Source: Bacteroidales bacterium (lineage in GTDB: Bacteria; Bacteroidota; Bacteroidia; Bacteroidales; UBA12077). Taken from it: DNA of 64,000 nucleotides. Below the pieces are notes generated by a model. The model did not search any database. It saw nothing but the letters and a program-made list of their open reading frames with translations, and was not told the DNA's origin. The translations under genes and the position numbers were made by a program. The stretch lies in assembly GCA_030611105.1 (NCBI GenBank), contig JAUWQL010000001.1, positions 5,531-69,530 of the forward strand, written 5' to 3'. Below are positions 14,650 to 39,044 of the stretch, in pieces (within the stretch, counting starts at the first letter, position 1; each line of letters begins with the position of its first letter).

Positions 14650-14684
14650 AAAAAAACAGGTTTCTAAAAAGAAACCTGTTTTTC
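14650..14684 (-). terminator. bidirectional hairpin terminator downstream of xdhC
   Basis: AAACAGGTTTC-TAAAAA-GAAACCTGTTT flanked by an A-run and a T-run. Confidence 0.6.
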
Positions 14685-14841: not shown

Positions 14842-15792
14842 TCAACAATTCTTAACCTGAATAATTTTAGCAGCAATACTAATGGCTATTTCCGCTGTTG
14901 TTTTACTGTTTATGGATAAGCCGATTGGTGCATCTACTTTAGCCAGATCCGCTTCCTTTACACCTTCTTTTATCAGGTTTTCGTAGATGGTTTTTATTTT
15001 GGTTTTACTACCGATCATTCCAAGGTATTTTAAATTTTTTGAAACTAATTGTTTTAAAACAATTGTATCACTCTTATGTGCAACAGTCATTATTACTGCA
15101 AAGCTATGCTCGTCATCAGGTACAATATCTGTTATGTTTTTATAATCAACAATTCGTTTTTGATGAGCGTACACATTATTATCGAAGGTTGACAGGTCTT
15201 TTCTGTCATCAAGAACAACAACTTTAAAATCAAGAACTCTAAGAATCTGACTTAACGGTAAACTAACATGCCCGGCACCAAAAATGTAAACGGTATCTTT
15301 TAAACCTAATTGCTCTGTGTATTCCCAGTTGTTTTCATCATTAATCCGGTAATTAATTTCATCCGGTAAAGTTTTATTCTCGTCAAAAGATATTCCATCC
15401 TGATTTAAACTTAATACACCGTTTTCTCCAATGTCAAGTTTTACTAAAATCCGGTTAATGATATCAATTTTTGATTTATCCAAAGGAATGAAAGCATGTG
15501 TTTGTTCTCCTGAACATATTAAACCCGATTTATCTTTTTCAGCATTAGTATCATGAACTTGTCTTTTAACAAATGCCTTTAGATTTCCGTTTTTAGCTTC
15601 TTTTTTAGCCAGTTCAACCATGTTGTATTCCATTACACCACCACCAATAGAACCTGTCATAGCACCGGTTTCCGAAACTGCCATTTTAAATCCGACAATG
15701 CCGGGACTACTTCCGGTTCGCTCAACAACAGTAATAAGCATCACATTATTATTTTCCGATAATTCTTCTTGAATAAAACTCCAGATTTCCAT
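14842..15792 (-). CDS. xdhC: XdhC/CoxI family molybdenum-hydroxylase maturation protein
   Basis: 316 aa; the N-terminal XdhC_CoxI-like segment (VVERTGSSPG) and a Rossmann-like IFGAGHVS segment match the two-domain XdhC architecture. Confidence 0.8.
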   Translation of the reverse strand: MEIWSFIQEELSENNNVMLITVVERTGSSPGIVGFKMAVSETGAMTGSIGGGVMEYNMVELAKKEAKNGNLKAFVKRQVHDTNAEKDKSGLICSGEQTHAFIPLDKSKIDIINRILVKLDIGENGVLSLNQDGISFDENKTLPDEINYRINDENNWEYTEQLGLKDTVYIFGAGHVSLPLSQILRVLDFKVVVLDDRKDLSTFDNNVYAHQKRIVDYKNITDIVPDDEHSFAVIMTVAHKSDTIVLKQLVSKNLKYLGMIGSKTKIKTIYENLIKEGVKEADLAKVDAPIGLSINSKTTAEIAISIAAKIIQVKNC

Positions 15793-16074
15793 ACTTTATC
15801 TATTTTAATTGATTTGTAAAGTTATTTAAAAATGAACTAAAATGACTAAAATATCAAAAATATCAAAAAATATCGACTAAAATCAATCTGCTAAAATGTG
15901 AATTATAATATTTGCTGTAATGATAGTTTAATGTAGAATAAAATCCTTATAATAAATTAAAAGATGTTGAAATATTCCATTTTTATTGATTGGCTCTGTA
16001 AATATATCCTGTGATATTAAAAAAATAAATAAAAAACATAACTTTAGCAATTGAATAATTAGAACGAAAATAGA

Positions 16075-17262
16075 ATGGAAAATATCTTTCAAAAAATTAA
16101 TGAATTATCAGAAAAGTATCGTGATTATACTGCAGAAAACTTATCAAAATTAGTACAAATCAAATCACTCAGTTTAGGTGAAGAAGAAGTTCAACTGGAA
16201 CTTAAAAGGCAAATGGAAGAAGCCGGTTTTGACGAAGTTAGAATTGATGGTTTAGGGAATGTAATTGGCAGAATTGGAAACGGAAAGAAAATTCTTGCAA
16301 TCGATGGACATATGGACACTGTTGATATGGGTAATATGGATAACTGGGATTTTAATCCTCTTGGTGGCGAAATAAAAGATGGTTTTGTTCATGGTCGTGG
16401 AACTGTTGATCAGGAAGGCGGACCAGCGGCATTTGTTACTACGGGTAGAATTTTGAAGGAATTAGGTTTCGATAAAGATCTTACTATATATTTTGTAGGA
16501 AGTGTAATAGAAGAAGATTGTGATGGTTTATGCTGGAAATATATTGTTGAAGAAGATAAAATTAAACCTGATTTTGTAATAAGCACAGAGCCAACAAATT
16601 TAAATATATACCGTGGTCATCGTGGACGTATGGAGATGCATGTTCATTTTTATGGTGTGTCATCGCATGGTTCAGCTCCTGAGCGGGGGAAAAATGCTAT
16701 TTATATGGCTTCGAAAACAGCTTTGGAAATTGAAAAACTACACGAAAGATTAAAGTTTGATGAGTTTCTTGGCAAAGGAAGCATAACAATTTCTGAGATT
16801 ATTTCCGGAAGTCCTTCTTTATGTGCAGTTTCTGATTATGCTCGTATTCACCTTGATCGCCGCTTAACATGGGGAGAAACCAAAGAATCAGCTGTTGCAG
16901 AAATAGAAGAACTAATTAAAGGAATGAACGCAAAGGTCGAAGTGCTGAATTATCTGGAAAAAGCATATACAGGACTGGAATATGGTATGGAGAAATATTA
17001 TCCAACATGGAAAATGCCTGAAGATCATGAAATTGTTCAAACTGGCGTTCGTTCATTCAAAAACTTGTTTAATAAGGATGTTAACATTGATAAATGGACA
17101 TTCTCAACCAATGGTATTATGACCAATGGAGTTTACGGTATTCCAACTATTGGATTTGGTCCGGGAAATGAAGTGCTGGCACATGCTCCAAATGAGAAAG
17201 TTGCTATTGATGATTTAGTTATAGCATCGGCATTTTACGCTGCTTTTGCTTATGAAATATAA
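16075..17262 (+). CDS. ygeY: YgeY-family M20 peptidase/deacylase (selenium-metabolism-linked hydrolase family)
   Basis: 395 aa; M20 metal ligands (GHMDTV, DQEGG, EEDCDG) plus the YgeW/HyuA/SsnA gene context. Confidence 0.82.
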   Translation: MENIFQKINELSEKYRDYTAENLSKLVQIKSLSLGEEEVQLELKRQMEEAGFDEVRIDGLGNVIGRIGNGKKILAIDGHMDTVDMGNMDNWDFNPLGGEIKDGFVHGRGTVDQEGGPAAFVTTGRILKELGFDKDLTIYFVGSVIEEDCDGLCWKYIVEEDKIKPDFVISTEPTNLNIYRGHRGRMEMHVHFYGVSSHGSAPERGKNAIYMASKTALEIEKLHERLKFDEFLGKGSITISEIISGSPSLCAVSDYARIHLDRRLTWGETKESAVAEIEELIKGMNAKVEVLNYLEKAYTGLEYGMEKYYPTWKMPEDHEIVQTGVRSFKNLFNKDVNIDKWTFSTNGIMTNGVYGIPTIGFGPGNEVLAHAPNEKVAIDDLVIASAFYAAFAYEI

Positions 17263-17398: not shown

Positions 17399-18586
17399 AT
17401 GAGTTTGCAAGATAAAATAAATAAGTTAGGTCAGCTGAAAACTGATCTTTATAAAAAAGATTTTTTACTTACCTGGGAAAAAAGTCGGGATGATTTAAAA
17501 GGGATCTTAGAAGTTGCAGAAATCCTAAAGGAAATGCGTGATAATAATATTTCTCCATCAGTTTTTGATTCTGGTTTATCTATATCAAATTTCCGTGATA
17601 ATTCAACACGTACACGTTTTTCTTTTGCATCGGCTAGTAATCTTTTGGGTTGTGCTGTTCAGGATTTAGATGAAGAAAAATCACAAATAGCTCATGGCGA
17701 GACAGTTCGCGAGACTGCAAATATGATTTCATTCCTTTCCGATTTTATAGGGATACGTGATGATATGTATTTGGGCGAAGGAAATAAATACATGCGTGAA
17801 GTTGGAGATGCACTTGATGAAGGATTTGCAAATGGAGTTTTACCAAATCGCCCGGGTATTGTGAATTTACAATGCGATATGGATCACCCAACACAATCGA
17901 TGGCTGATTTAATGCATTTGCAGCAGCAGTTTGGTTCATTAGAAAATCTGAAAGGTAAAAAGATTGTTATGAGTTGGGCTTATTCGCCTAGTTACGGAAA
18001 ACCATTATCAGTACCACAAGGTATTATTGGATTAATGTCGCGTTACGGAATGGATATTGAATTAGCTTATCCTGAAGGATATGGATTAATTCCTGAGATT
18101 GTTGAAATTGCTAAAAAGAATTCAGAAAAAAGTGGTGGATCATTCAAAATAAGTCATTCAATGGAAGAGGCAGTTAAAGATGCTGATATTGTTTATCCAA
18201 AAAGTTGGGCACCATTCCACATTATGCAACAAAGAACAGAATTGCTTAAGAATTCTGATTCGGAAGGTTTAAAGGCGCTGGAACAAATTTGTTTAGCTAA
18301 CAATGCTAAGTTTAAGGATTGGGAATACAACGAAGAAAAAAAGAAATTAACTAAAAATCAGGATGCTTTGTATATGCACTGTTTACCAGCAGATATTTCC
18401 GGGATTTCGTGTAAAGAAGGTGAAGTAAATGGAGATGTTTTCGAACAATATCGCATCAAAACGTACCTGGAAGCAGGCTTCAAACCATACATTATTGCTG
18501 CAATGATGTTTACAAATAAGTTCAAAAACCCATCCGAAGTGTTAGATAATATCCTTAAAAGGGATAGAAGGAGAGTAGGTTTTTAA
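17399..18586 (+). CDS. ygeW: knotted carbamoyltransferase YgeW family
   Basis: 395 aa; STRTR carbamoyl-phosphate motif, HPTQ and HCLP motifs, and the extended length characteristic of YgeW rather than ArgF or PyrB. Confidence 0.85.
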   Translation: MSLQDKINKLGQLKTDLYKKDFLLTWEKSRDDLKGILEVAEILKEMRDNNISPSVFDSGLSISNFRDNSTRTRFSFASASNLLGCAVQDLDEEKSQIAHGETVRETANMISFLSDFIGIRDDMYLGEGNKYMREVGDALDEGFANGVLPNRPGIVNLQCDMDHPTQSMADLMHLQQQFGSLENLKGKKIVMSWAYSPSYGKPLSVPQGIIGLMSRYGMDIELAYPEGYGLIPEIVEIAKKNSEKSGGSFKISHSMEEAVKDADIVYPKSWAPFHIMQQRTELLKNSDSEGLKALEQICLANNAKFKDWEYNEEKKKLTKNQDALYMHCLPADISGISCKEGEVNGDVFEQYRIKTYLEAGFKPYIIAAMMFTNKFKNPSEVLDNILKRDRRRVGF

Positions 18587-18687
18587 CCTACTCTTTTTTT
18601 GTAAAAACACAGTAAATGACTTGATTGTTTCAAGGTACAACCAATAAAGATTCTTGTTTAAATTTGAAATATTACTGTAAATTAGTA

Positions 18688-18842
18688 TGTCATTCTGAGT
18701 GAAATGAATAACATGGGAATATAGAGATCCCCAATCAAGTTGAAAAAAAACAATAAACCAAGTCATTCCTGCGCAGGCAGGAATCTCTTTCTTAATAATG
18801 CGCACAAATTTGATCAGATTCTTCGTTTCACTCAGAATGACA
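18688..18842. repeat. MITE-like element with 17-bp perfect terminal inverted repeats
   Basis: TGTCATTCTGAGTGAAA at 18688-18704 pairs with TTTCACTCAGAATGACA at 18826-18842. It encloses the nested hairpin ATTCCTGC-GCAG-GCAGGAAT at 18765-18784. Confidence 0.6.
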
Positions 18843-18863
18843 ATATGAAAGGGCTTTGAATAT

Positions 18864-20231
18864 TTATATGCTTCTTTTCAGGAATTGACCTTTTCTATCT
18901 GAAACTAATTCACCTTTTTCAATAACTATTTCTCCATTTAAAATAACAAATTCCGTAGTTCCTTTGGTTTTGATTCCTTCGTAAATTTCCAAATCGCAAT
19001 TTTGATGATGATTTTCGACTGAAATAGTATTTTCTTTTTCAGGATTCCAGATAACTAAATCAGCATCTGAACCTACAGCTATTTCACCTTTTTGTGGATG
19101 TAAACCAAATATCTTTGCAGCTTGTGTTGATGTAATATCAATAAACTGATTCAAAGTGATTCTATTTTGTAAAACACCATAGGTGTAAAGCAATGTTATC
19201 CTGTGTTCAACACCACCTGCACCGTTTGGAATTTTTCTAAAATCATCAATTCCATTTTTCTTTTGTTCTAATGTAAATGGACAATGATCTGTTCCAATAG
19301 TTTTTACAATTCCTTTATTTATTGATTCCCAAAGAATATTCTGATCTTCCCTTTTGCGTAATGGCGGACTCATAACAAGCTTAGAAGTATCTTCAAAATC
19401 ACCAATGTATTTCGTATCATCCAGAATTAAATATTGCGGACAAGTTTCGGAATAAACCTGTTGTCCGGCTTTTTGAGCTTCTTCGATATATTTAACCGAT
19501 TTTCCTGCAGAAGTATGAACAATATATATCGTACAAGCAGCTTTTTTAGCCAACTCAATTGCTTTTTTTACTGCTTCTGATTCTGTATAATCCGGTCTTG
19601 AAACAGGATGAAATTCAGGGCTTAATTTGCCTTTTTCTGCAAGTGCGTTTCTTAACTCATCTATATTATCTCCCAATTCACAATGTAATGTTACAATGCC
19701 TCCTGCTTTGCCGACAACTTGCATTACTTTAAAAATATCATCATCATTTAAGCCAATGCTATCTTTATAAGCCATATAAACTTTAAAAGAAGTTATTCCG
19801 GCTTTTATACAATCCGTAATTTCTTGTTCAGTATTTTTTGTCCATTCAACCGGACTAACATGAAAAGAATAATCGCAAATGGAATTTTCAGCTTCCGTTT
19901 TTCTTTGGTTTAAAGCATCAATTAAGGTTTGGCCTTTTTGTGGAGTAACAAAATCTATTAGGGTAGTGGTTCCGCCAAAAAGCGCTGCTTTACTTCCCGA
20001 TTTAAAATCATCCGATGAATAACCTGCAGGTGTTGGAAGGTGCATATGAACATGAGGATCTATTCCTCCGGGGAAAATATAAAATCCTTTTGCATCAATG
20101 GTTTTATCTATTGGTTCGAGAATGTTTAACAATTCCTTAATTTGAACTATTTTACCATTCGAAATATAAATATCAGAGTTAAATGACTTCTTTGAAGTTA
20201 CAATGGCTCCATTTTTTATTAAAATGTTCAT
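18864..20231 (-). CDS. hyuA: dihydropyrimidinase / D-hydantoinase (HyuA-like cyclic amidohydrolase), intact copy
   Basis: 455 aa; GGIDPHVHM metal motif and SFKVYMAYK (carbamylated-Lys region). Confidence 0.87.
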   Translation of the reverse strand: MNILIKNGAIVTSKKSFNSDIYISNGKIVQIKELLNILEPIDKTIDAKGFYIFPGGIDPHVHMHLPTPAGYSSDDFKSGSKAALFGGTTTLIDFVTPQKGQTLIDALNQRKTEAENSICDYSFHVSPVEWTKNTEQEITDCIKAGITSFKVYMAYKDSIGLNDDDIFKVMQVVGKAGGIVTLHCELGDNIDELRNALAEKGKLSPEFHPVSRPDYTESEAVKKAIELAKKAACTIYIVHTSAGKSVKYIEEAQKAGQQVYSETCPQYLILDDTKYIGDFEDTSKLVMSPPLRKREDQNILWESINKGIVKTIGTDHCPFTLEQKKNGIDDFRKIPNGAGGVEHRITLLYTYGVLQNRITLNQFIDITSTQAAKIFGLHPQKGEIAVGSDADLVIWNPEKENTISVENHHQNCDLEIYEGIKTKGTTEFVILNGEIVIEKGELVSDRKGQFLKRSI

Positions 20232-20275
20232 ATGTAAATTTACTAATTCTTTTGAGACTATAATAAGCAGCTATA

Positions 20276-20344
20276 TGTCATTCCGGACGAAGTTCCGGAA
20301 TCTTTTATATGATGTCATAGATTCCTGCCTGCGCAGAAATGACA
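20276..20344. repeat. two GTCATTCC...GGAAT-type hairpin units
   Basis: TGTCATTCCGGACGAAGTTCCGGAATC and TGTCATAGATTCCTGCCTGCGCAGAAATGACA lie between the 3TM gene and hyuA. Confidence 0.55.
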
Positions 20345-20349
20345 CATTG

Positions 20350-20982
20350 TTATTTTGTTTTATCTAAAACCTTAACAAACATTCCATCCTGATTTTCTGT
20401 AAATCCTAATTTCTTTAGATATTTAGAATATTTTACGCTTCTACCGGAAGCTTTTACAATATCAAATCTGTCATCAATAAATTTTCTTCTTAAACGAAGA
20501 TAAATAAACCGGCCATTTTTAAAATCACGGTATTCCGGTACAACATAATCGAGTCCTACTTTTAGCACGTTGTTATCTTCTCTGTGTGCAAGAAATAAAC
20601 CTGCAACAGCTGTGTTTCTCAGAATAAAAAAACTTATGGTGTTCATTTCGGGTACATAAGTAAATCCAGGAAAGAACTTTTGTATTTCTTTGTTATGAAA
20701 TTTAAGAAAACGCAACAGATATTTATTATCTGCTCTGATTTCAAGTGTTTCGAATATTTCCTTTTTTGAATAAATAGTAAAAAGATAGTAAACATCAACA
20801 ATAACAATAAAGCCATTAAGAAATCCAACTGGTAAAGCACCAATAAGAAAACCATATGTTGAAAAAGTTATGGCTCCCGCTAAATTTATCCATCTGAATT
20901 TTACAATGGAATTCATTGTCATGGATAACGCAATGATTACTGAAGCAGCATAACCTATCCACTGAAGTATGTTTGTTTCCAT
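20350..20982 (-). CDS. 3-TM (YgjV / PQ-loop-like) membrane domain fused to a GNAT-like cytoplasmic domain, copy A
   Basis: 210 aa with three N-terminal helices. The C-terminal region has GLDYVVPEYRDFKNGRFIY and YLKKLGF, resembling GNAT motif A and the GNAT C-terminus. By-eye call. Confidence 0.5.
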   Translation of the reverse strand: METNILQWIGYAASVIIALSMTMNSIVKFRWINLAGAITFSTYGFLIGALPVGFLNGFIVIVDVYYLFTIYSKKEIFETLEIRADNKYLLRFLKFHNKEIQKFFPGFTYVPEMNTISFFILRNTAVAGLFLAHREDNNVLKVGLDYVVPEYRDFKNGRFIYLRLRRKFIDDRFDIVKASGRSVKYSKYLKKLGFTENQDGMFVKVLDKTK

Positions 20983-21085
20983 AATATTGTAAGATTAAAC
21001 TAATGTAAAAATAATCAATTATCACTTAATTTCCCCTTTTATAAAGGTGGGTGGTAGGGTTGATGAAAGTTAAACTAAATATATT

Positions 21086-21135
21086 TGTCATTCCCGCGAA
21101 CTTTTCTCAAGAGTGAAACGAATAACGCGGGAATC
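21086..21135. repeat. GTCATTCC-type hairpin unit
   Basis: TGTCATTCCCGCG ... CGCGGGAATC with a 27-nt loop. Confidence 0.5.
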
Positions 21136-21356
21136 TATTTAGTTTGAGATTCCTGATCTTCATTTCATTTCGTCATTAACGTTTATCTTCATGAACAAAG
21201 TAATTAATGACAGAATGTGAAATTGTTATTTCCATTAAAGTATAAATGATTATTCCCGACCATTTCAGCTTTTAATATGTCCGCTTCGCATTTTTTTCTA
21301 AAAAAAGAATACATACTTCTTTTATATTTGTTGCCCTGAACTAAAATTTTTAAAAG

Positions 21357-22154
21357 ATGAAGAAAATAAACTTTTTAATTTTTACAATTATTGTTATCCT
21401 ATTAGCAATGTTTGGTAAAGATTTATCTGCTCAAGAAACTGTAAGCGGAACAGTGAAATATAAGCAAACCACAAAGTTTGATTTCTCTAACAGACAGGGT
21501 ACTGGAAGAGATAGTCAACGATGGAAGGATTTTATGGCTTCTGTTCCAGACGAAGGGAATTTTTCTTATATACTTAATTTTTTAGATAATAAGGCTTTAT
21601 ATAAAGAAAATGATGCAGAACAAGAAGCACTAGATCCAGGTGTGCAAAGAGCTATGCATATTATGAGTATGACGTCACCTCCAAATGCAAAATTAATACA
21701 GGTATATTATAATATTGAAAAGAATAAAAAAATTGAGCTATTGGAACTTATGACCCGAAACTTTATTATAGAATCGGAGATTGACAGTAAAGCGTGGAAA
21801 ATAGGTACTGAAAGAAAAATGATTCTAGATTATGTGTGTATGAATGCTGAATTGAATACTGAAAATCAAGAAGTAAAAGTTTGGTTTACACCACAAATTC
21901 CTATATCAATTGGCCCAGATCGGTATACAGGTTTACCTGGATTAGTTTTAGCTGTTGAAAAAAATGGAGAAACTATTTTCTTAGCGACTGCGGTTGATTT
22001 AACTGTACCACAAAAAGTGGACGTAGCAAAGCCAAAAGATGGAAGCAAGGTTAGTCAAGAAGAGTTTGATAAAATCCTTGAAGAAAAAATAAAAGAATTT
22101 AAAGAGAATCCTAGAAGAAGAGGACAAGGTGGTAGACCAGGAGAACATAGATAA
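21357..22154 (+). CDS. GLPGLI family protein
   Basis: Signal peptide and the eponymous motif YTGLPGLVLAV. The stop overlaps the next ATG (TAATG). Confidence 0.8.
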   Translation: MKKINFLIFTIIVILLAMFGKDLSAQETVSGTVKYKQTTKFDFSNRQGTGRDSQRWKDFMASVPDEGNFSYILNFLDNKALYKENDAEQEALDPGVQRAMHIMSMTSPPNAKLIQVYYNIEKNKKIELLELMTRNFIIESEIDSKAWKIGTERKMILDYVCMNAELNTENQEVKVWFTPQIPISIGPDRYTGLPGLVLAVEKNGETIFLATAVDLTVPQKVDVAKPKDGSKVSQEEFDKILEEKIKEFKENPRRRGQGGRPGEHR

Positions 22155-24802
22155 TGAAAAAGCAACTATTTATATTAATACTAACTATAGGCCTATCATC
22201 ATTAGGCTTTTCTCAAAATTCGATAAAGGGCAGATTAATTAATGAAGCTGGCGAATCTTTGCCATATGCGACGGTAACAATGTTAAATCCTGGAGATTCA
22301 ACATTAAGATTTTTTGGTGTTACCAACAATAAAGGAATTTATCAGATCAAAAGCATTAAGAATGGTAATTATATTATGCAATTTTCATTTGTAGGAACGG
22401 AAATCGTATATGAAAATATTACTATTCCATCACCGAAAGGATATGATCTTGGTGATAAAATAATGAAGCCATCCTCAATAGAAGAAGTTATAGTTATTGG
22501 AGAATATGTCCCAATAGCCTTTAAAAGCGACACGGTAGAATTTAATGCAAAAGCATTCATAACTACACCCGATGCAGTTGTTGAAGATCTATTAAAGAAG
22601 ATTCCTGGTATTGAAGTTGATGAAACTGGCAATGTAAAAGCTTTAGGCGAGGATGTTACAAAAATATTAGTTGATGGAAAAGAGTTTTTTGGGAACGATA
22701 TCAAAGTAGCCACTAAAAACTTGCCTGCTAATGCAGTAGCAAAAGTTCAGGTTTATGACAAAAAATCGGAAGAAGCTGAATTTATGGGTATTGATGACGG
22801 TGACCGTGATAGAACAATAAATCTTTTATTGAATGAAGATAATAAAAGAGGATATTTTGGAGATGTGAAACTTGGCGGTGGAGTTGGAGGTGAAAATGGA
22901 GATCAGTCTCATTATAATGTATCAGCAAACATATACAGGTTTTCAAGTAAATTGCAAACAGCGGTTTTAGGAATGTATAACAATGTTAATGAATTTGGAT
23001 ATTCTGGAAGAAAACATGGTAATTTTGGACAACAAGTAAATGGTTTAAATACAACAGGTGCAGGTGGTTTAAATCTTTCCTATAATGCTTCCAAAATTAA
23101 CAGATACTTTGTAAGCTATTTGGGAAGATCAACGAATACCATATTAGAACAAGTAAGATTAACTCAGAATTTTTCGGATATTGGAAACTACGATCAAGAT
23201 CTAGAGCTTGAGGAGGATGAAAATGACGCACCACATACAATCAATTTTGGTGTTCGTCATAATTTTAACAAAAACCATAAACTTACACTTGATGGAGATG
23301 TTGAAATTGCATCTAATGATTTATTAAGTCAGGGAAATACACTAACAAGTGTTGATGGGATTAATATTAGTAGTTTGAGTAATGAATCTCATATTTATAC
23401 ATACGATATTAATGCAATTGCAAAGGCGGTTTATATTGCTAAGTTTAATAGCGGTAAAACACATATAAAAACGAATATTTATGGTTTATACGAGAAAGAT
23501 TCTGAAGATAATGCCTGGGAAAATATAACAACAATATTTGGTTTTCCTGATTCTACTGATTATTTAGATCAATATCAAAATAATGATACAGAAAAATTAA
23601 CATTATCGGCAAATCCAACCTTAGTACAACAAATAAAAAAGTTTTGGTATTTAAATGTTAATGTTAATGTTGGAATGACAAACGAGACGCTAGATCGTAT
23701 CCATGGAAATAATTTGGATAATACAATTGTTGATTCAGTTGGCGCTAATTTTAATACTAATGCAAGCTTTGTTCGCCCCGGAGTATCTATTAGTAGAAAT
23801 ACTTCTAAATCGCAAATTAATTTAACTTTAGGTGTAGGATTTGATCAGCTAGAGAAGAATTTAGGAGGAGTTGACCATAGATCTAAATCTTATTTTAATT
23901 TCCTTCCAAGTTTTAGTTATTCAAGTCAATACAATAAAGGGAAATGGCTAAGACTACGTTATTCTTCCAGTGTTAATATGCCTTCAGTAAGCCAACTGTT
24001 GCCAGTTACAAACACAATTAATCCTTTATCCTGGTATGAGGGTAACTCTGAACTTATTCCTGAAGTTAGACATAGTTTAAATTTGAATTGGTCCATATTT
24101 GATCAGTTTTCTTTTACTTCATTCTTTGCACGTGTTGGTGGTAGCTACACAATGAATAAAATTGGGATAGAGCAAACTACAAATGCTGATTTTACTAGGT
24201 TGATTACTCCAGTTAATGTACCATATAATTATAATCTCAATTCTGTTATTTATTTTTCAACCCCAATCAGAAAACTGGGTGTGAATTTAAATGCTAACTG
24301 GCATGAATCATGGAGTAAAGGAATTAGTATTGTAAATTTAATTGATAATATTAATACTAATTTTACACATTCCTTAAAATTAAGTTTCGAGAACAGACGA
24401 AAAGAAAAGTGGAATGTACTTATTGGAGGATCTATTAGTTTAACCGACTCAGAGTATTCTATTGCCGAATCAATGAATAATATTTATTATAATACAAGCT
24501 ATTTTGGAGAGTTGCGATTTACGCCAAGCAAAAAATTTAGTATAGAGACAAAGGCCAATATGGTAGATTATAACTCGGAAAGTTTTGATGAGTCAATAAG
24601 TATTCCACTTGTAAGTGTACGATTAAGTTATTATTTTATGAGAGGAGAGAAAGCAAGTTTAACACTTAGCGGATCAGATTTATTAGATAAAAGTCAGAAT
24701 ATTAAGCAGGTAAGCGAAGCCAATTATCTTATGCAGCAAACTAGTAATACAATTGGTAGACTAATAATGCTTACTTTTAAAATGAAAATAGCAGCAAAAT
24801 AA
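22154..24802 (+). CDS. outer-membrane beta-barrel protein with CarboxypepD_reg-like N-terminal domain (TonB-dependent-receptor-like)
   Basis: 882 aa; signal peptide, SIKGRLINEAGESLPYATV N-terminal domain, plug-like DLLKKIPGIEVD, and a beta-rich remainder. Confidence 0.7.
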   Translation: MKKQLFILILTIGLSSLGFSQNSIKGRLINEAGESLPYATVTMLNPGDSTLRFFGVTNNKGIYQIKSIKNGNYIMQFSFVGTEIVYENITIPSPKGYDLGDKIMKPSSIEEVIVIGEYVPIAFKSDTVEFNAKAFITTPDAVVEDLLKKIPGIEVDETGNVKALGEDVTKILVDGKEFFGNDIKVATKNLPANAVAKVQVYDKKSEEAEFMGIDDGDRDRTINLLLNEDNKRGYFGDVKLGGGVGGENGDQSHYNVSANIYRFSSKLQTAVLGMYNNVNEFGYSGRKHGNFGQQVNGLNTTGAGGLNLSYNASKINRYFVSYLGRSTNTILEQVRLTQNFSDIGNYDQDLELEEDENDAPHTINFGVRHNFNKNHKLTLDGDVEIASNDLLSQGNTLTSVDGINISSLSNESHIYTYDINAIAKAVYIAKFNSGKTHIKTNIYGLYEKDSEDNAWENITTIFGFPDSTDYLDQYQNNDTEKLTLSANPTLVQQIKKFWYLNVNVNVGMTNETLDRIHGNNLDNTIVDSVGANFNTNASFVRPGVSISRNTSKSQINLTLGVGFDQLEKNLGGVDHRSKSYFNFLPSFSYSSQYNKGKWLRLRYSSSVNMPSVSQLLPVTNTINPLSWYEGNSELIPEVRHSLNLNWSIFDQFSFTSFFARVGGSYTMNKIGIEQTTNADFTRLITPVNVPYNYNLNSVIYFSTPIRKLGVNLNANWHESWSKGISIVNLIDNINTNFTHSLKLSFENRRKEKWNVLIGGSISLTDSEYSIAESMNNIYYNTSYFGELRFTPSKKFSIETKANMVDYNSESFDESISIPLVSVRLSYYFMRGEKASLTLSGSDLLDKSQNIKQVSEANYLMQQTSNTIGRLIMLTFKMKIAAK

Positions 24803-24811
24803 ATTTAAAGC

Positions 24812-25858
24812 ATGGATAAAATAAAGAAATATTCTTTTTGGATAATTATTGTTTCTGCAATAATAGTTACCATATTATTTAATATTAGAAGTTTTGGACA
24901 TGTTAAGGAAATGCTCGAATCATCAAGATTTAGGGAGATGCCCGATAAAGGAATGATTCGGGTATATTTCCTGGTTTATACTTCTATTTTTCAATTTCTT
25001 ACTTTTTCCATTTTAGCTTTATTAAATTTTTCATGGAAGGAAAAAGTTGTAAACTTTGGCTATTCTAAATCCTCTAAAACATTTCTAATAATTCTTATTA
25101 ATATATTTATTTACTCACTAATTGTGATAATAGAATATACAGTTTTTGGTTTCTATTTTGATTTTAGAAGACCCATGTCTACTGACTATTTTATTTTTGC
25201 TAATATCGCTGTGGCATTGATGGCTATTGCAGAAGCTTATTTTTTATTATTATTAGGGAAAGTTAAAACATCGGAATTAGAGAATATTAAATTGAGAGAA
25301 GATAAAACAATTGCTGAACTGGCTGCTTTAAAAGATCAAATCAGTCCTCATTTCTTTTTCAATACATTAAGTTCTTTAAGTACAATTGTTCGAAATGAGA
25401 ACAAAGAAGTAGGCCTTGAGTTTATTCAGGATATGTCGAAAATATATCATTATTCTTTATCAAGTGGACAACAAGATTTAGTGAGCCTGAAAGAAGAACT
25501 TGATTTTATTCAATCGTATATTTTTTTATTGAAAAAACGCTTCGGTAAAAAATTGATGATTAAAATTGATGTTTCTGATATTTTAAATCAATCAAAAATT
25601 CCGCCAATGTCATTGCAATTGCTTATAGAAAACGCCATTCAGCACAATGTCATAACACAGGCTTCTCCCTTGTCAGTAAAAATATTTATCAAAGGAAATA
25701 TGATTTGCGTGGAGAATAATCTGCAAAAGAAAGATACAGCAGACAGCTTTGGAATTGGTCTTAAAAATTTAACGAATCGCTATCGATTATTAGCACAAAA
25801 GGGTGTTGTTATTGAGAAAGATGAACTAATTTTTAGTGTATCTTTACCTTTAATATGA
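24812..25858 (+). CDS. LytS/YehU-type sensor histidine kinase
   Basis: Membrane N-terminal half, then QISPHFFFNTL (the His_kinase PF06580-type H-box) and an HATPase N-box LLIENAIQHN. Confidence 0.8.
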   Translation: MDKIKKYSFWIIIVSAIIVTILFNIRSFGHVKEMLESSRFREMPDKGMIRVYFLVYTSIFQFLTFSILALLNFSWKEKVVNFGYSKSSKTFLIILINIFIYSLIVIIEYTVFGFYFDFRRPMSTDYFIFANIAVALMAIAEAYFLLLLGKVKTSELENIKLREDKTIAELAALKDQISPHFFFNTLSSLSTIVRNENKEVGLEFIQDMSKIYHYSLSSGQQDLVSLKEELDFIQSYIFLLKKRFGKKLMIKIDVSDILNQSKIPPMSLQLLIENAIQHNVITQASPLSVKIFIKGNMICVENNLQKKDTADSFGIGLKNLTNRYRLLAQKGVVIEKDELIFSVSLPLI

Positions 25859-26625
25859 GAGTTTTAATCATAGAAGATGAATATGGAGTAGCTCAAAATC
25901 TTTGCGATATTTTGTATGAAATTGAACCAGAAATTGAGATATTAGCTATTTTAGAAACAATAAAAGATGCTGTTGAATGGATAATGACTAATCCAAAGCC
26001 CGATTTAGGTTTCTTTGATATTCGAATTGCCGATGGCCATTCGTTTGAGATTTTTGAAAGAACTCCAGTTGATTTTCCTATCATATTTACTACTGCTTAT
26101 GATGAATATGCCCTCCAAGCATTTAAAGTAAATAGCATTGATTACCTAATGAAACCTATTGAAAAAGATTCATTGATATCTGCTTTAGATAAATATGAAT
26201 CTATATATAAAAGAGATGAAGTTACTGATAACGAAAACTTATTGAAGATTATACATGAATTACACTTGGGAGAGCAAAAAAAGTATAAGAAAAGTTTCCT
26301 TGTTTATTTTAGGGATAAGATTATTCCAATTACGGTTGAGGATATCTCTTATTTTTATTTAGAAGATGAAATAGTTTATTGTATTACACATAAAAATGAT
26401 AAATATACGATTGATCTATCCTTAGATAAAATCAATAAAAAAATAAATCCTGAAGATTTTTTCAGAGCAAACCGGCAATTCATAGTTTCTCGTACATCTA
26501 TTAAATCGGCACTTACATATTTTCATCGAAAACTCAAGCTGGAGCTTAATCCTGCTCTTTTAAAAGAGGTACTAATAAGTAAACCGAAAGTTTCCGAATT
26601 CAAAAAATGGTTGGCCGGGAATTAA
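25855..26625 (+). CDS. LytTR-family response regulator
   Basis: Receiver domain (LIIEDE ... FFDIRIADG ... YLMKP) plus a C-terminal LytTR-like domain. Overlaps the kinase gene by 4 nt. Confidence 0.87.
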   Translation: MRVLIIEDEYGVAQNLCDILYEIEPEIEILAILETIKDAVEWIMTNPKPDLGFFDIRIADGHSFEIFERTPVDFPIIFTTAYDEYALQAFKVNSIDYLMKPIEKDSLISALDKYESIYKRDEVTDNENLLKIIHELHLGEQKKYKKSFLVYFRDKIIPITVEDISYFYLEDEIVYCITHKNDKYTIDLSLDKINKKINPEDFFRANRQFIVSRTSIKSALTYFHRKLKLELNPALLKEVLISKPKVSEFKKWLAGN

Positions 26626-26697
26626 ATATGGATAAAAGAATTTAGAGATTCATTATCGTTTTGACTAAAAACCTAGAAACCGTTTGGTTGGCTAGGC

Positions 26698-27272
26698 TTA
26701 CAATTTATAGACATTGTTAGCATTTTTATTATTTTTAATTCTTTTAAAAAGACTTTGCACAATCTTATTTAAATACACTTTTGATTCAATGCATTCAAAT
26801 TCCAGCTCATTTGGTAGTTCTGAAAACAATGGAGTACCGCCACACCTAACAAAATTGGAATGGTTGTAATTACCAAGTTGTCAATTAAATCTTCCTTTAA
26901 AAATTCTTGAATTGTTGTACCGCCATCAATGTAAAGTCGATGACAACCTTTTTGATGGATTTGTTCTAATATCTCAGTTAAAGTTCCCTTAATAAGGTAG
27001 GCTTTATCTTTATAATCTTTAGGTATTTCCTTTAAAGTATTACTTAATACAAATAGTGGTTTTTCATAAGGCCAATCCATATCAAAACCACAAATTGTTT
27101 CGAAAGTTGTGCGCCCCATGACAAGCGCATCTATTTGTGATATAAATTCACCATAACCCATGTCTATATTATCAGGATTTGGGATTGAATGAAGCCAGTC
27201 GATTCCTCCATTTTTATCCGCAATATAGCCATCTAGACTTGTTGCAATAAATACACTATTTCTCTTTTCCAT
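26698..27272 (-). pseudogene. RibD-C / dihydrofolate-reductase-like family gene with a 1-nt frameshift near the 3' end
   Basis: The N-terminal 143 aa (IATSLDGYIA...IDGGTTIQEFLKEDLIDNLVITTIPILLG) are family-typical. The expected continuation GTPLFSELPNELEFECIESKVYLNKIVQS is in another frame from about 26836-26846 and runs to a stop at 26698. Confidence 0.6.
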
Positions 27273-27388
27273 TTTATTAATTCAATTGTATTTTATGAAT
27301 GCCAACCTCCTGATAATGACAAGTGGTTATAGGGTGTAATTATTCGTTTATTTCATATGAAGGTTACCACACAAGCAGATCTCTCTTT

Positions 27389-28761
27389 TTAATTATATAC
27401 AGATCTTTCTAAAAACCTACCTTTATTTTCTAAAACTAATTCTCCATTTTCAACAACAATCTCTCCATTTAAAATAACAAATTCCGTAGTTCCTTTGGTT
27501 TTGATTCCTTCATAAATTTCCAAATCGCAATTTTGATGATGATTTTCGACTGAAATAGTATTTTCTTTTTCAGGATTCCAGATAACTAAATCAGCATCTG
27601 AACCTATTGCTATTTCACCTTTTTGTGGATATAAACCAAATATCTTTGCTGCATTTGTTGCAGTAATATCAATAAACTGATTCAAGGTGATTCTGTTTTG
27701 TAAAACACCATAGGTGTAAAGCAATATCATCCTGTGTTCAACACCACTTGCACCGTTTGGAATTTTTCTAAAATCAGTAATCCCTGTTTTCTTTTGTTCT
27801 AATGTAAATGGACAATGATCTGTACCAACTGTTTTAACAACACCCTTTTTTATTGATTCCCAAAGCACTTCCTGATCTTCTTTTTTACGCAAAGGCGGAC
27901 TTATAACAAAAGGAGCAGTGTCTTCAAATTCGCCTGTATATTTAGAGTCATCTAATAACAAGTACTGTGGACAAGTTTCGGAATAAACCTTTTGTCCTGC
28001 TTTTTGAGCTTCTTCTATATATTTAATTGAATCTCCAGTGGATGTATGAACAATATATATTGAGCAACTGGCTTTTTTAGCCATTTCAATAGCATTTTTA
28101 ACAGCTTCTGATTCGGTGTGTGTTGGTCGTGAAACAGGATGAAATTCAGGACTTAAATTCCCATTCCCGGCAAGTTCATTTCTCAGCTCATCAATTTTAT
28201 CTCCTGTTTCACAATGTAATGTTACAATGCCTCCTGCTTTTCCGACAACTTGCATTACTTTAAAAATGTCATCATCATTTAAGCCAATGCTATCTTTATA
28301 AGCCATATAAACCTTAAAAGAAGTTATTCCGGCTTTTACACACTCCTTAATTTCTTGCTCTGTTGTATTCGTCCATTCAACGGGACTAACATGAAAAGAA
28401 TAATCGCAAATGGAATTTTCAGTTTCCGTTTTTCTTTGGTTTAAAGCATCAATTAAGGTTTGGCCTTTTTGTGGAGTAACAAAATCTATTAGGGTAGTGG
28501 TTCCGCCAAAAAGCGCTGCTTTGCTTCCCGATTTAAAATCATCCGATGAATAACCTGCAGGTGTTGGAAGGTGCATATGAACATGAGGATCTATTCCTCC
28601 GGGAAAAATATAGAAACCTTTGGCATCAATTGTTTTATCAATAGACTCATAGATATTTAATGAATTACCATTTGGACAATTTTATTATTGGAAATATAAA
28701 TATCAGAACTGAAAGTTCGATTTGAAGTAACAATAGTACCGTTTTTGATTAAAATGCTCAT
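27389..28761 (-). pseudogene. second hyuA-like dihydropyrimidinase copy, frameshifted after codon 30
   Basis: ATG at 28761 gives MSILIKNGTIVTSNRTFSSDIYISNNKIVQMVIH and then a TAA at 28657-28659. The rest (GNSLNIYESIDKTIDAKGFYIFPGGIDPHVHMHLP...) continues in another frame. This stretch is 59 nt versus 60 nt in copy A. Confidence 0.7.
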
Positions 28762-28801
28762 GTGTAAATGTACTAATTCTTTTGTAGTATAAAATGCTGC
28801 T

Positions 28802-28911
28802 TGTCATTCCGGGCATCCCGATAGCTATAGGGACAGGAATCTGTAATTAAATCTCTAAATAGATTATTCCCTTTGGTCATGAGAAAAGTTCCTGCCTGCG
28901 CAGGAATGACA
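28802..28911. repeat. GTCATTCC...GGAATGACA hairpin-repeat cassette
   Basis: TGTCATTCCGGGCATCCCGATAGCTATAGGGACAGGAATC ... TTCCTGCCTGCGCAGGAATGACA. Same intergenic position as 20276-20344, but with different internal content. Confidence 0.55.
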
Positions 28912-28916
28912 ATTTG

Positions 28917-29549
28917 TTATTTAGTTTTATCCAAAACCTTGACAAACATTCCATCCTGATTTTCTGTAAATCCTAATTTCTTTAGATATTTAGAATATTT
29001 CTCACTTTTACCGGTAGCCATTACAGTATTGAAACCATCATCAATAAATTTTCTTCTTAAACGAAGATAGATATATCTTCCGTTTTTAAAATCACGGTAT
29101 TCGGGAATTACATAATCCAGTCCGACTTTTAGAATATTGTTATCTTCTCTGTGTGCCAGAAAAAGTCCTGCAACAGCTGTATTTCTGAGGATAAAAAAAC
29201 TTATGGTGTTTATTTCGGGTTGGTACGTAAAACCGGGAAAAAACTTTTGTATTTCTTTGTTATGAAATTCTAAGAATCGTAGTAAATATTTATTACCGGC
29301 TCTTACTTCCAGAGTTTCAAAGATTTCCTTTTTTGTGTAAATCGTAAACAGATAATAAATATCGACAGTAACAATAAAGCCATTAAGAAATCCAACAGGC
29401 AAAGCTCCAATAAGAAAACCATATGTTGAAAATGTTATGGCTCCTGCTAAATTTATCCATCTGAATTTTACAATGGAATTCATTGTCATGGATAGAGCAA
29501 TGATAACTGAAGCCGTATAACCTATCCATTGTAATATGTTTGTTTCCAT
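28917..29549 (-). CDS. 3-TM (YgjV / PQ-loop-like) plus GNAT-like fusion protein, copy B
   Basis: The track ORF begins at a TTG at 29558. The ATG at 29549 (METNILQW) matches copy A. High identity to copy A by eye. Confidence 0.5.
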   Translation of the reverse strand: METNILQWIGYTASVIIALSMTMNSIVKFRWINLAGAITFSTYGFLIGALPVGFLNGFIVTVDIYYLFTIYTKKEIFETLEVRAGNKYLLRFLEFHNKEIQKFFPGFTYQPEINTISFFILRNTAVAGLFLAHREDNNILKVGLDYVIPEYRDFKNGRYIYLRLRRKFIDDGFNTVMATGKSEKYSKYLKKLGFTENQDGMFVKVLDKTK

Positions 29550-29554
29550 AATAT

Positions 29555-30940
29555 TCAAGAAAAAAGTTTAAAGTACAAAGATAAAAGTAAAAAGGGGGAT
29601 TTAAAGAAGAATAAAGTTATAGTTTCATTTTCCCCTTTTTCTTTTTCCTTTTGTCTTTTATCTTGATTTAGGCTTGCATTTTTTTTCCAGAGTCTTAAGG
29701 ATTGTTCTTTTGAGAATGCTAAAATTTCAGATTCGTTTACATTTTGAATTTTACGGTCTTTTACAATGATTTTCCCATTGGAAATAACATCATTTATATG
29801 ATTCGAATTGATCCCAAAAATGAAATGTCCCAAAAAATTATTTTGATTGATTTCGGTAGGAGAGTCATAATCCAGAATGACCAGATTGTTTTCTCCGTCG
29901 CCATCAAATTTGTTTATTTCGATATAATCATGCACTTTTCTGAAACGATCATATGCTGACGGATAATCAATAGTATCAAAACCTTGCCCAACAAAGAAAG
30001 CTGCTTTTGCGCTTTGTAACATATCGCTATGCATTCCATCTGTCCCAAGTAGTATATTATCACCTAATCCTTTGGCATTAAAATAGCCAACTTTATTATT
30101 TAAATTACTTTCCATATTCTGGACAACAAACGATTTTGAATTTTTTATGATACTCCGTTCATTATCATCAATATGTAAACAGTGTCCAAGAATAGTTTTC
30201 GAAGAATCTAAAACTCCATAATCGTTTAAGCGTTCAATTACTCGTTTATTATAATTATCCTGACAATGTCTTTGATCATAAAGGTCTTCTGCCACATGAA
30301 TATGGAAACCTGAATTGTATTTACTCATTAAATCAGCAGCTTTTATCATAGTTTCGTCACCAACCGTGAATGAAGCATGCAAACCTACCAGCCCCTGATT
30401 CGATTTTAAATAATTTTCTGTTTCTGAAATTCCTTTTTCAGCCTTGTCTAAACCGTCTCGGTCAGTAATTTCATAACATAATAAATGACTAATACCTACT
30501 TTATCAAATGCTTTTGCGATTATATCCAATGAACCTTCAATGAAATTTGGTGATGCATGATGATCAATAACAAAAGTTGAACCAGCTTTGGCGCATGCCA
30601 TAGCTGTGGTTAAAGCACTTGCTTCAATCATATCTTTATCCAAGCATTTGTCTAATGTCCACCAGATGTATTGCAGGATTTCATAAAAGTTTTCAGGATT
30701 TTTTTTCGGAGCCCCCATTCCACGTGCTAAAGCTGAATATACATGATGATGTCCGACTGCAAAAGATTTAGTAACCAGTTTCCCTCTACAATCAATAGTT
30801 TGATCTGTATTGTTTATATTATTAATATTATCAATGAATTTTATTTTACCGGAAATTCCTTTTTCAACTTGAATATTTGTATTTCTGAATTCTAAGGTTT
30901 TCCAGTCGATATAAATAGCGTTTTTTAGTAGAATAGACAT
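29555..30940 (-). CDS. ssnA: SsnA-family aminohydrolase (chlorohydrolase/deaminase superfamily)
   Basis: 461-aa ORF; metal motif AVGHHHVYS, HIHVAED and GTDGMHSD. The last ~39 aa are a low-complexity tail downstream of an A8 run (29679-29686) and may not be genuine. Confidence 0.78.
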   Translation of the reverse strand: MSILLKNAIYIDWKTLEFRNTNIQVEKGISGKIKFIDNINNINNTDQTIDCRGKLVTKSFAVGHHHVYSALARGMGAPKKNPENFYEILQYIWWTLDKCLDKDMIEASALTTAMACAKAGSTFVIDHHASPNFIEGSLDIIAKAFDKVGISHLLCYEITDRDGLDKAEKGISETENYLKSNQGLVGLHASFTVGDETMIKAADLMSKYNSGFHIHVAEDLYDQRHCQDNYNKRVIERLNDYGVLDSSKTILGHCLHIDDNERSIIKNSKSFVVQNMESNLNNKVGYFNAKGLGDNILLGTDGMHSDMLQSAKAAFFVGQGFDTIDYPSAYDRFRKVHDYIEINKFDGDGENNLVILDYDSPTEINQNNFLGHFIFGINSNHINDVISNGKIIVKDRKIQNVNESEILAFSKEQSLRLWKKNASLNQDKRQKEKEKGENETITLFFFKSPFLLLSLYFKLFS

Positions 30941-38195: not shown

Positions 38196-39044
38196 TTAGG
38201 CATAAATTTTAGCAAGTCTAAAAAGGAAAAAAGATATATCTGTCACACCTCTTTGTGTCGCTCTGAAAGCTTTTATTTTAGCATTAAAAGATTCTGCAGA
38301 AGCATTTGTGCTTCGATTATCAAAAAAGTTAAGAATTTCCGGATAATGAGAATAAATTGTGGCAGATATAGTATTAAACGATTTGAACCCTGATTCTGTT
38401 ATAGTATTGAACCATTGAGCAAGTTTTGTATATGCAACACCTTTTGTTTTAGTATGAGAGAATATCATTCTTAATGAATGAGTTAGATTGTAAGCTTCTT
38501 TGATATCAGGGTATTCTATAAATAATATTTTAGCTCGTACTTTTTGTTTCTCTGTCCATTTCTCTTGTGATTTAAAGAGCAAATATCTGCTACGGGCTAA
38601 TAATTGTTTTCGTGTATCTCCATTTTGAAATACCTTTGGTATATATTTTATGTTATCAGATTTTGCATTTTCTATTGCATTAGTTTCTTCATTTATAGCA
38701 TTCCAACGATGTGCGATACGTATTTCTTGAACGGCATCATAAGCTAATTTCTGAACATGAAAACGATCAATAACTTTTGTAGCATTTGGAAAACATTTTA
38801 CAACAACTTTACTCATGGAACCAGCCATATCTAATGTAATTTCTTTTACTGTTGCTCTAAGTTTTTTTGGTATACGTTCAATAACTTCTATGATTTGATC
38901 GCTACCAGTTCCTTCTATCATAGCAACTATTGTCCCTTTTCTGCCTTTGCCTGCTTTATTTGTTAAAACAGTATATAACTCACCATTAGATAAGCTTGTT
39001 TCGTCTATGCTTAATTGAGCACCTATATTATCAGGAAAAAGCAT
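38196..39044 (-). CDS. ISAon1-family transposase, catalytic part
   Basis: 282 aa from the first ATG; the frame stays open upstream to about 39190. Segments IDETSLSNGELYT, DRFHVQKLA and STNASAESFNAKIKAFR match my recollection of this transposase family. Confidence 0.8.
   Translation of the reverse strand: MLFPDNIGAQLSIDETSLSNGELYTVLTNKAGKGRKGTIVAMIEGTGSDQIIEVIERIPKKLRATVKEITLDMAGSMSKVVVKCFPNATKVIDRFHVQKLAYDAVQEIRIAHRWNAINEETNAIENAKSDNIKYIPKVFQNGDTRKQLLARSRYLLFKSQEKWTEKQKVRAKILFIEYPDIKEAYNLTHSLRMIFSHTKTKGVAYTKLAQWFNTITESGFKSFNTISATIYSHYPEILNFFDNRSTNASAESFNAKIKAFRATQRGVTDISFFLFRLAKIYA

Follow-up and report, generated by a model that had tools for sequence, protein, structure and literature searches.

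A urate-degradation gene cluster in Bacteroidales bacterium assembly GCA_030611105.1 (contig JAUWQL010000001.1) carries two copies of a unit made of the hydantoinase gene hyuA and p210, a gene for a protein of 210 amino acids (aa). The stretch analysed here, referred to as the window (W), comprises 64,000 nucleotides (nt) of a 99,423-nt contig from a metagenome assembly and has a G+C content of 31.6%. The duplication is real: two homologous copies, A and B, lie on one replicon. In unconverted sequence these copies are not each other's closest relatives. We favour, with a probability of roughly 0.55, an import of copy A from another lineage, by which it was added beside resident copy B; gene conversion between the copies and a frameshift in hyuA_B would have followed.

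Two collinear copies with a mosaic of shared and lineage-specific tracts

Local alignment of the copies by blastn paired A 18861-21011 with B 27390-29579 (84.9% identity, 2200 columns), and global alignment of A against B placed the unit at 18864-20991 in A and at 27389(27393)-29558 in B, with 85.0% identity and collinear order. A preliminary description, made from the letters of the sequence, had proposed such a two-gene duplication, and its limits were recovered to within ~30 nt. The left edge of the unit lies at the hyuA stop codons, where the final 69 nt can still be aligned, at only 71% identity, and the right edge lies 6-9 nt upstream of the p210 ATG. The copies are not adjacent head to tail; 6.4 kb (20983-27388) separate them. 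A remnant of ssnA, sought as a possible extension of the unit, was found neither upstream of copy A nor in 20983-21126.

Identity along the alignment confirmed the patchiness that had been described, with 99% tracts (tracts 1 and 2; Table 1) alternating with tracts of 71-78% (71.0% at 18864-18930, 78.4% at 19281-19660 and 75.3% at 20073-20231). Tract 3 is partly homogenised. The longest exact A/B runs measure 99, 94 and 80 nt, and in unconverted tracts the copies are 22-29% diverged. The hyuA-p210 spacer is the least conserved part of the unit (61.6% identity, indels included).

We found synonymous differences in hyuA to be clustered (variance/mean 2.8, permutation p ≤ 1e-4), and a codon map showed that the near-identical tracts are identical at synonymous sites too. 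A Sawyer/GENECONV-type test on 653 polymorphic sites of a 10-sequence alignment identified four significant A=B fragments, two of them in tract 1 (global p = 7e-4 and 0.014) and two in tract 2 (global p = 5e-5 and 0.035). The mosaic in hyuA thus exceeds chance and the conversion signal is real. Synonymous differences in p210 alone showed no significant clustering (p about 0.13-0.29), so the mosaic is mainly a property of hyuA. At the positions of the identity tracts, orthologs of close relatives differ by 7-11%, indicating that these tracts are not mutationally cold. Purifying selection was considered as the cause of the identical tracts and rejected, both on this ortholog difference and on the identity of synonymous sites. 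The 99% tracts are best read as the result of exchange between the copies, tract by tract.

The copies were compared with 172 related loci (designated Lnnn), comprising 80 species representatives, 80 metagenome contigs and 12 further contigs found through homologs of the 210-aa protein and of an outer-membrane protein (OMP) encoded between the copies. The closest relatives of W are L161/L162 and L164/L018/L166; L018, identical to L165, is the metagenome-assembled genome (MAG) JAUVUS01 and belongs to the same lineage as L164 and L166. W shares 91-95% nt identity with L161/L164 at xdhC, ygeY, ssnA, xdh, the thrC-like and cysK-like genes and lrp.

Neighbour-joining trees with bootstrap, built segment by segment, separated the two copies. 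For p210 columns 110-540, A grouped with L003 (0.99) and B with L161 and L164 (0.96), and the pair (A,B) received 0; unconverted hyuA (columns 0-135 plus 600-720) gave 0.87, 1.0 and 0.0 for the same three groupings. L003 is a single-copy MAG, more distant from W than L161/L164. Site patterns told the same story: A matched L003 and B matched L018 at 85 sites, the opposite grouping was seen at 17, and tracts with A=B lay in between. Within hyuA_A, the 5' 135 nt and columns ~600-720 go with L003, columns ~135-560 match B and L164, and the 3' third goes with B. The 5' two-thirds of hyuA_B are sister to L161/L164 (bootstrap 0.98-1.0, 85-96% identity). Nearly all of p210_A is A-type; p210_B has 92.3% nt identity to L164/L018, and the spacer upstream of it is almost the same as in L018. 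For columns 960-1340, the 3' third of hyuA, A and B grouped together with bootstrap 1.0, both unlike L161, L164 and L003.

In tract 1, A and B together differ from L018 and L003. In tract 2, both match the L018/L164 type and differ from L003; this tract is thus of the resident, L164-like type, which points to transfer from B to A.

Also divergent is ygeW, which adjoins copy A. It is 85-86% nt identical to ygeW of L161/L164/L167 and likewise to that of the distant L001/L002, whereas L161 and L164 are 92.8% identical to each other. To its left, ygeY and xdhC are 91-93% identical to close relatives. The clade of W, L161, L164 and L167 received bootstrap 1.0 for ygeY and xdhC and 0.40 for ygeW. 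Since most of the ygeW differences are synonymous (92% aa against 85% nt identity), they indicate deeper ancestry rather than relaxed selection. A stretch of foreign type thus appears to start near the ygeY/ygeW spacer and to run into copy A. The grouping of A with L003, taken with the divergent ygeW, argues for a copy from another lineage rather than for long divergence within one genome. The preliminary description had explained the patchwork by gene conversion between old paralogs; the conversion stands, while the copies are probably not old in-genome paralogs, as A goes with L003, B goes with L161/L164 and none of the 172 related loci has two copies of the unit.

Assembly, locus order and the origin of copy A

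Since the contig is metagenome-assembled, contains A/B exact runs of up to 99 nt and is matched at ygeW by a Logan contig that stops at 18020, two strains or species might have been stitched together, so that no genome would hold the duplication. We regard such a chimera as very improbable. Three contigs of another assembly (Logan, run SRR12623522) cover much of the locus (Table 1). L170 joins, at 100% identity on one contig, the A-specific 5' end of p210, the block between the copies and the B-specific 3' end of hyuA; this p210-block-hyuA order is impossible for a single-copy locus. L173 confirms the passage from ygeY to ygeW and L174 that from ssnA to p210_B, and both outer flanks are of the same lineage. 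The one difference between L173 and W is an A in a homopolymer (~14665-14671), in the loop of a hairpin in the eamA/xdhC spacer. Both L170 and L174 break off exactly 30 nt inside the first A/B-shared run of at least 31 nt, as expected of a k=31 graph at a true repeat. Finally, A resembles L003 and B resembles L161/L164 both before and after the long shared tract.

Gene order in relatives runs lrp, cysK-like, thrC-like, xdh, ssnA, p210, hyuA and then ygeW, ygeY, xdhC, eamA, yigZ and pyrB, with hyuA followed by ygeW-ygeY-xdhC either directly or after variable inserts. This single-copy order implies that the hyuA_A/ygeW and p210_B/ssnA junctions are both ancestral: each copy keeps one, A with ygeW and B with ssnA. 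Copy B had been taken to retain the ancestral context and copy A to be detached beside ygeW. The comparison bears out the first part; the second does not hold, the hyuA_A/ygeW junction being ancestral too. The absence of a second hyuA-p210 unit from the related loci refers to the contigs sampled, many of them short, so that genome-wide absence is unproven.

These observations bear on the possibility that the unit was duplicated in a common Bacteroidales ancestor, diverged within genomes, was partly converted and lost one or the other copy in all other sampled lineages. Such a history would account for the 22-29% divergence in unconverted tracts, the real conversion signal, the occurrence of A-type and B-type each as the sole copy in other genomes and the diverged hyuA 3' remnant adjoining ygeW in L078. 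That remnant is the only partial case of a two-copy locus in the whole set. W is nested in the B-type clade (ygeY and xdhC, bootstrap 1.0), which means that a copy must have been lost several times independently; A-type and B-type are distributed in step with the way the flanking genes group the species; and the divergent ygeW beside A is left unexplained. We consider old paralogy improbable.

The block between the copies had been described as unrelated to the duplicated genes. It is collinear with 8982-14494 of L171, a single-copy relative (82.9% over 5534 nt, W 21127-26650), where GLPGLI-OMP-LytS-LytTR lies between the ygeW-side cargo and the 3' end of the single hyuA. The same block thus adjoins the hyuA 3' end there. 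The 82.9% is about what the flanking core genes show between W and L171, and the closest homolog of the block OMP outside W's genome (81% aa) is in L171. Segment 26651-27388, which carries a RibD_C gene, is absent from L171, and 20983-21126 is also W-specific. The RibD_C gene had been called a decaying DHFR-like gene; its open reading frame (ORF) is intact (167 aa, 58.6 bits) and decay was not shown.

Hairpins resembling repetitive extragenic palindromic (REP) elements, with the arms GTCATTC...GAATGAC, occur 12 times in the 64 kb, and seven of them lie at edges of the hyuA units. Within W they stand beyond the hyuA_A 3' end, between hyuA and p210 of each copy, inside the 144-nt junction segment and where the block begins on its left, a position that has one in L171 too. 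In relatives, related hairpins are found beside these same genes; that of W at ~21087-21135 is related to hairpins in the ssnA/p210 spacers of L003 and L004.

We propose the following course of events. The resident locus would have been ygeW-(block)-hyuA-p210-ssnA, the block already adjoining resident hyuA, with copy B (p210 and the hyuA 5' two-thirds), ssnA, xdh, ygeY and xdhC vertically inherited. DNA of another Bacteroidales lineage, carrying ygeW'-hyuA'-p210', would then have recombined in next to hyuA, at a hot spot of variable structure. Its left crossover would lie near the ygeY/ygeW spacer and the right junction at or near the REP-like hairpin at the left edge of the block, probably through short hairpin homology. 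A right junction at the block edge means that incoming hyuA'-p210' was added and the resident pair not replaced. RecA-type gene conversion between the homeologous copies would then have produced the 99% tracts, perhaps in both directions and in at least one case from B to A. Resident hyuA_B would later have been frameshifted, which would leave hyuA_A as the only intact hydantoinase of the pathway. Campbell-type integration of a circle with a crossover in hyuA was also considered and rejected: it would leave both ygeW and the 3' part of A of resident type, which is true of neither.

The same data fit a different order, in which hyuA-p210 was recently duplicated in situ across the block and a later transformation-type event replaced ygeW and non-contiguous patches of A, with a few of B, by DNA of another lineage. 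The 99% tracts would then be unreplaced remnants rather than conversion tracts. As this order predicts, columns ~135-560 show the resident L164 type in their identical tracts, and in naturally transformable bacteria a single uptake event can leave patchy donor segments. It needs an extra, unexplained duplication step that put copies on both sides of a 6.4-kb block. The foreign stretch from ygeW to p210_A is broken by tracts of 99%, 94% and 91%, which fits repeated exchange better than a single date, and p210_A is almost wholly A-type. We view duplication followed by replacement as unlikely, though it is the main rival.

Several observations weigh against import followed by conversion. The order of events could be the reverse, with duplication first and patchy import into A afterwards. 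Even between L161 and L164, identity falls to 84.8% in the hyuA 3' third, which is hypervariable; with a difference of 15% there, a resident type is undefined and the direction of exchange cannot be read in that part. B itself carries lineage-specific patches at 27607-27870. Support for displacement of ygeW is moderate (0.40 against 0.62), and ygeW of W is close to nothing sampled. Genome and metagenome scans yielded no donor at near-identity, the best for A-type tracts being L003 at 86-92%. The passage from the 3' half of ygeW to hyuA_A, and the phasing of A and B across runs of up to 99 nt, come from a single assembly, and all compared genomes are MAGs or metagenome contigs. A scan of metagenome contigs returned no relative above 80% aa identity, and a search for exact protein matches returned none for hyuA_A, p210_A, p210_B, ygeW or the 395-aa ORF of copy B.

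Both spacers around hyuA vary among relatives. The hyuA-ygeW spacer may contain a gene for GIY-YIG, a set of TetR, SDR and epimerase genes, or other cargo; small GIY-YIG nuclease genes stand at the hyuA 3' end in L161, L164, L001 and L002; downstream of hyuA_A, where relatives carry the GIY-YIG gene, no remnant of it was found in the window. A bolder, speculative extension of the import reading, to which we give little credence at present, is that the spacers flanking hyuA serve as a dedicated hot spot of recombination, with REP-like hairpins and small GIY-YIG nuclease genes as its seeds, at which cargo and foreign alleles are repeatedly captured across species. The window would then be a live intermediate of xenologous displacement, with the incoming hyuA intact, the resident one freshly frameshifted and the copies still exchanging tracts.

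The duplicated genes and the surrounding cluster

The two copies of hyuA differ in integrity. The identification as hyuA was upheld by TIGR02033, against which hyuA_A scored 549 bits (cut-off 393) as a full-length, intact 455-aa frame. The frame of hyuA_B is broken: relative to L161/L164, one T is missing at ~28669-28671 (codon 31), a change that the preliminary description did not mention. Translation would end after 34 codons, and the first ATG that then follows in frame falls within the HxH metal-binding motif; the longest remaining ORF (27389-28576) encodes 395 aa. Judged from its sequence, hyuA_B is probably a pseudogene. Lineage-specific non-synonymous and synonymous counts gave no sign of relaxed selection on it, being the same as for A, L161 and L164. 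This lack of further decay suggests that the frameshift is recent or, less likely, an error. L164 and L166 have an intact hyuA for 455 aa; that of L018 (2344-3707) is frameshifted near codon 404, owing either to an error in the MAG or to pseudogene formation at the strain level.

The second gene of the unit, p210, codes for a protein with three transmembrane helices. It has 1455 homologs at E ≤ 1e-5, all unnamed, and no match in Pfam, NCBIfam or PDB sequences even at E = 10. An AlphaFold2 model (pLDDT 75.6) consists of three N-terminal helices (3-21, 26-46 and 50-72) followed by an alpha/beta domain, for which the 50 best Foldseek matches in the PDB were all GNAT acetyltransferases (E = 4e-4 to 2e-2, TM 0.45-0.60). 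With moderate strength, these matches suggest a GNAT-like fold for the C-terminal domain; the label 3TM-GNAT-like given earlier therefore holds at the level of fold. The acetyl-CoA motif Q/R-x-x-G-x-G/A is absent from p210, the position reading YRDFKNG (151-157, pLDDT <50). In most Bacteroidota clusters examined (L001-L080), p210 lies between ssnA and hyuA. This conserved position suggests that p210 may be an unrecognised component of the urate-degradation pathway. A perfect match to the Bacteroidota -7 promoter motif (TAnnTTTG) precedes p210_B by 34 nt, and p210_A lacks one; at 1.4 per kb, the motif is too frequent to carry weight.

Between p210 and hyuA, many relatives (L001, L002, L006, L013, L014 and L019) carry a lipoprotein gene of ~400 aa (N-terminus ...NLPDISGYPIV...), which the window lacks; the p210-hyuA spacer of L171 (16271-18076) has an Lcl_C-domain gene and a 137-aa ORF instead. 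In L078 (Saprospiraceae), a 4.5-kb insert follows hyuA, and then comes a ~200-nt hyuA 3' remnant (15898-16095), 80.5% identical to the 3' end of the full hyuA of L078; it represents an independent partial duplication at the same site.

The window encodes a selenium-dependent purine/urate degradation cluster with xanthine dehydrogenase, SsnA, HyuA, YgeW, YgeY, XdhC and pyridoxal phosphate (PLP) enzymes. Clusters of this kind have lately been elucidated in E. coli and C. difficile (PMC12507026). Reductive degradation of uric acid via 2,8-dioxopurine involves XdhD, YgfK, SsnA, HyuA, YgeW, YgeY and YgeX (PMC12507026; bioRxiv 10.1101/2025.04.24.650524), with HyuA acting downstream of SsnA to open the hydantoin ring (PMC12507026). 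Unlike the version in E. coli and C. difficile, the Bacteroidota cluster has a conserved p210 between ssnA and hyuA, and in W's genome hyuA and p210 are duplicated as well.

Other parts of the cluster also vary. The L167 lineage (L167-L169) is 90-92% identical to W at xdhC and ygeY and only 84.9% at ssnA; ssnA seems to be recombinant in that lineage too, and mosaicism of the cluster seems not to be confined to hyuA. Compared with relatives, ssnA of W has one extra A in a poly-A run (29671-29692), by which the usual stop is bypassed, giving an ORF of 461 aa (~422-425 aa in relatives) that ends 5 nt from the p210_B ATG. Logan contig L174 and a recorded 461-aa protein (P0245) have the extra A as well. 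At the edge of the cluster, ~1 kb beyond lrp, an ISAon1/ISL3-family transposase ORF (38196-39044, 282 aa) covers positions 46-327 of a 327-position model and appears N-terminally truncated.

Table 1. Genes, spacers and shared tracts around the two hyuA-p210 units, with the Logan contigs that match parts of the window (W)
Feature	Position in W	Strand	Remarks
pyrB, yigZ, EamA-like gene, xdhC	xdhC 14842-15792	-	left of ygeY
ygeY	16075-17262	+	
ygeW	17399-18586	+	knotted carbamoyltransferase (NCBIfam NF005538, 687 bits); divergent allele contiguous with copy A
ygeW/hyuA_A spacer	18587-18863		nested REP-like hairpins, GTCATTC...GAATGAC at 18689-18841
hyuA copy A	18864-20231	-	D-hydantoinase/dihydropyrimidinase, 455 aa, intact
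hyuA_A-p210_A spacer	20232-20349		REP-like hairpin 20277-20343
p210 copy A	20350-20982	-	210 aa, intact
Junction segment p210_A/block	20983-21126 (144 nt)		W-specific; REP-like hairpin ~21087-21135
Spacer block	21127-26650	+	GLPGLI 21357-22154; OMP_b-brl_3 outer-membrane protein 22154-24802; LytS-type histidine kinase 24812-25858; LytTR response regulator 25855-26625
Segment with RibD_C-domain gene	26651-27388	-	W-specific; gene 26769-27272 (167 aa), same strand as hyuA_B, directly downstream
hyuA copy B	27389-28761	-	frame broken
hyuA_B-p210_B spacer	28762-28916		REP-like hairpin 28803-28910
p210 copy B	28917-29549	-	intact, resident ortholog
ssnA, Se-dependent xanthine dehydrogenase, two PLP enzymes; then lrp		-; lrp +	right of p210_B
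Identity tract 1	A 18931-19075 = B 27462-27606	-	1 difference/145 nt (99.3%)
Identity tract 2	A 19852-20072 = B 28383-28603	-	2 differences/221 nt (99.1%)
Identity tract 3	A 19661-19800 = B 28192-28331	-	94.3%, partly homogenised
p210 short tracts	A 20857-20935 = B 29424-29502; 20350-20440	-	94.9%; 93.4%; neither individually significant
Logan L173	12842-18020		99.98%; resident-type ygeY to divergent ygeW (first 621 nt)
Logan L170	20898-27491 (6594 nt)		100%; A-specific p210 5' end, whole block, B-specific hyuA 3' end
Logan L174	29465-33134		100%; xdh-ssnA to first 85 nt of p210_B

Relation to known systems and meaning

The duplicated tufA/tufB genes of Salmonella and E. coli reportedly undergo gene conversion. 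The likeness lies in two chromosomal copies that swap tracts by homologous recombination, with synonymous sites identical and paralogs grouping together in segment trees. The tuf copies are said to be ancient, essential and homogenised over their whole length. Unlike them, the hyuA-p210 copies are homeologous (71-78% where unconverted), about a third of hyuA is homogenised, p210 is barely affected and hyuA_B is frameshifted.

Foreign DNA can reportedly be integrated additively, anchored on one side by homology, in what is called homology-facilitated illegitimate recombination. As in such events, the window would have one clear homologous boundary (ygeY/ygeW) and another end at a non-homologous or short-homology site, with genes added. 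It differs in that the right junction may use the homology of REP-like hairpins rather than microhomology. Duplications and rearrangements mediated by REP elements are also said to occur. Here, too, short palindromic intergenic repeats stand at every unit boundary and at the block edge, where a REP role is possible. Because the copies are not sister sequences, simple unequal crossing-over between REPs within one genome does not explain their origin.

In xenologous gene displacement, an incoming homolog is said to take over from the resident gene. The window resembles this in that the incoming homolog is intact and the resident copy has an inactivating frameshift. It differs from full displacement in that both p210 genes are intact, hyuA_B shows no further decay and the copies appear still to be exchanging.

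The case is of a known kind, inter-lineage recombination followed by gene conversion, and leaves current concepts unchanged. Its value is that of a documented example and of a caution for hyuA phylogenies, and its general interest is modest. For annotation of purine-degrading clusters in uricolytic gut and sediment bacteria, it warns that hyuA phylogenies in this clade are mosaic, that one of the two hyuA genes here is probably dead and that a conserved, uncharacterised gene for a putatively membrane-anchored, GNAT-like protein travels with hyuA. On the import reading, an apparent duplication in a bacterium can come from recombination between lineages rather than from copying within a genome, and the homeologous copies may then be partly homogenised.

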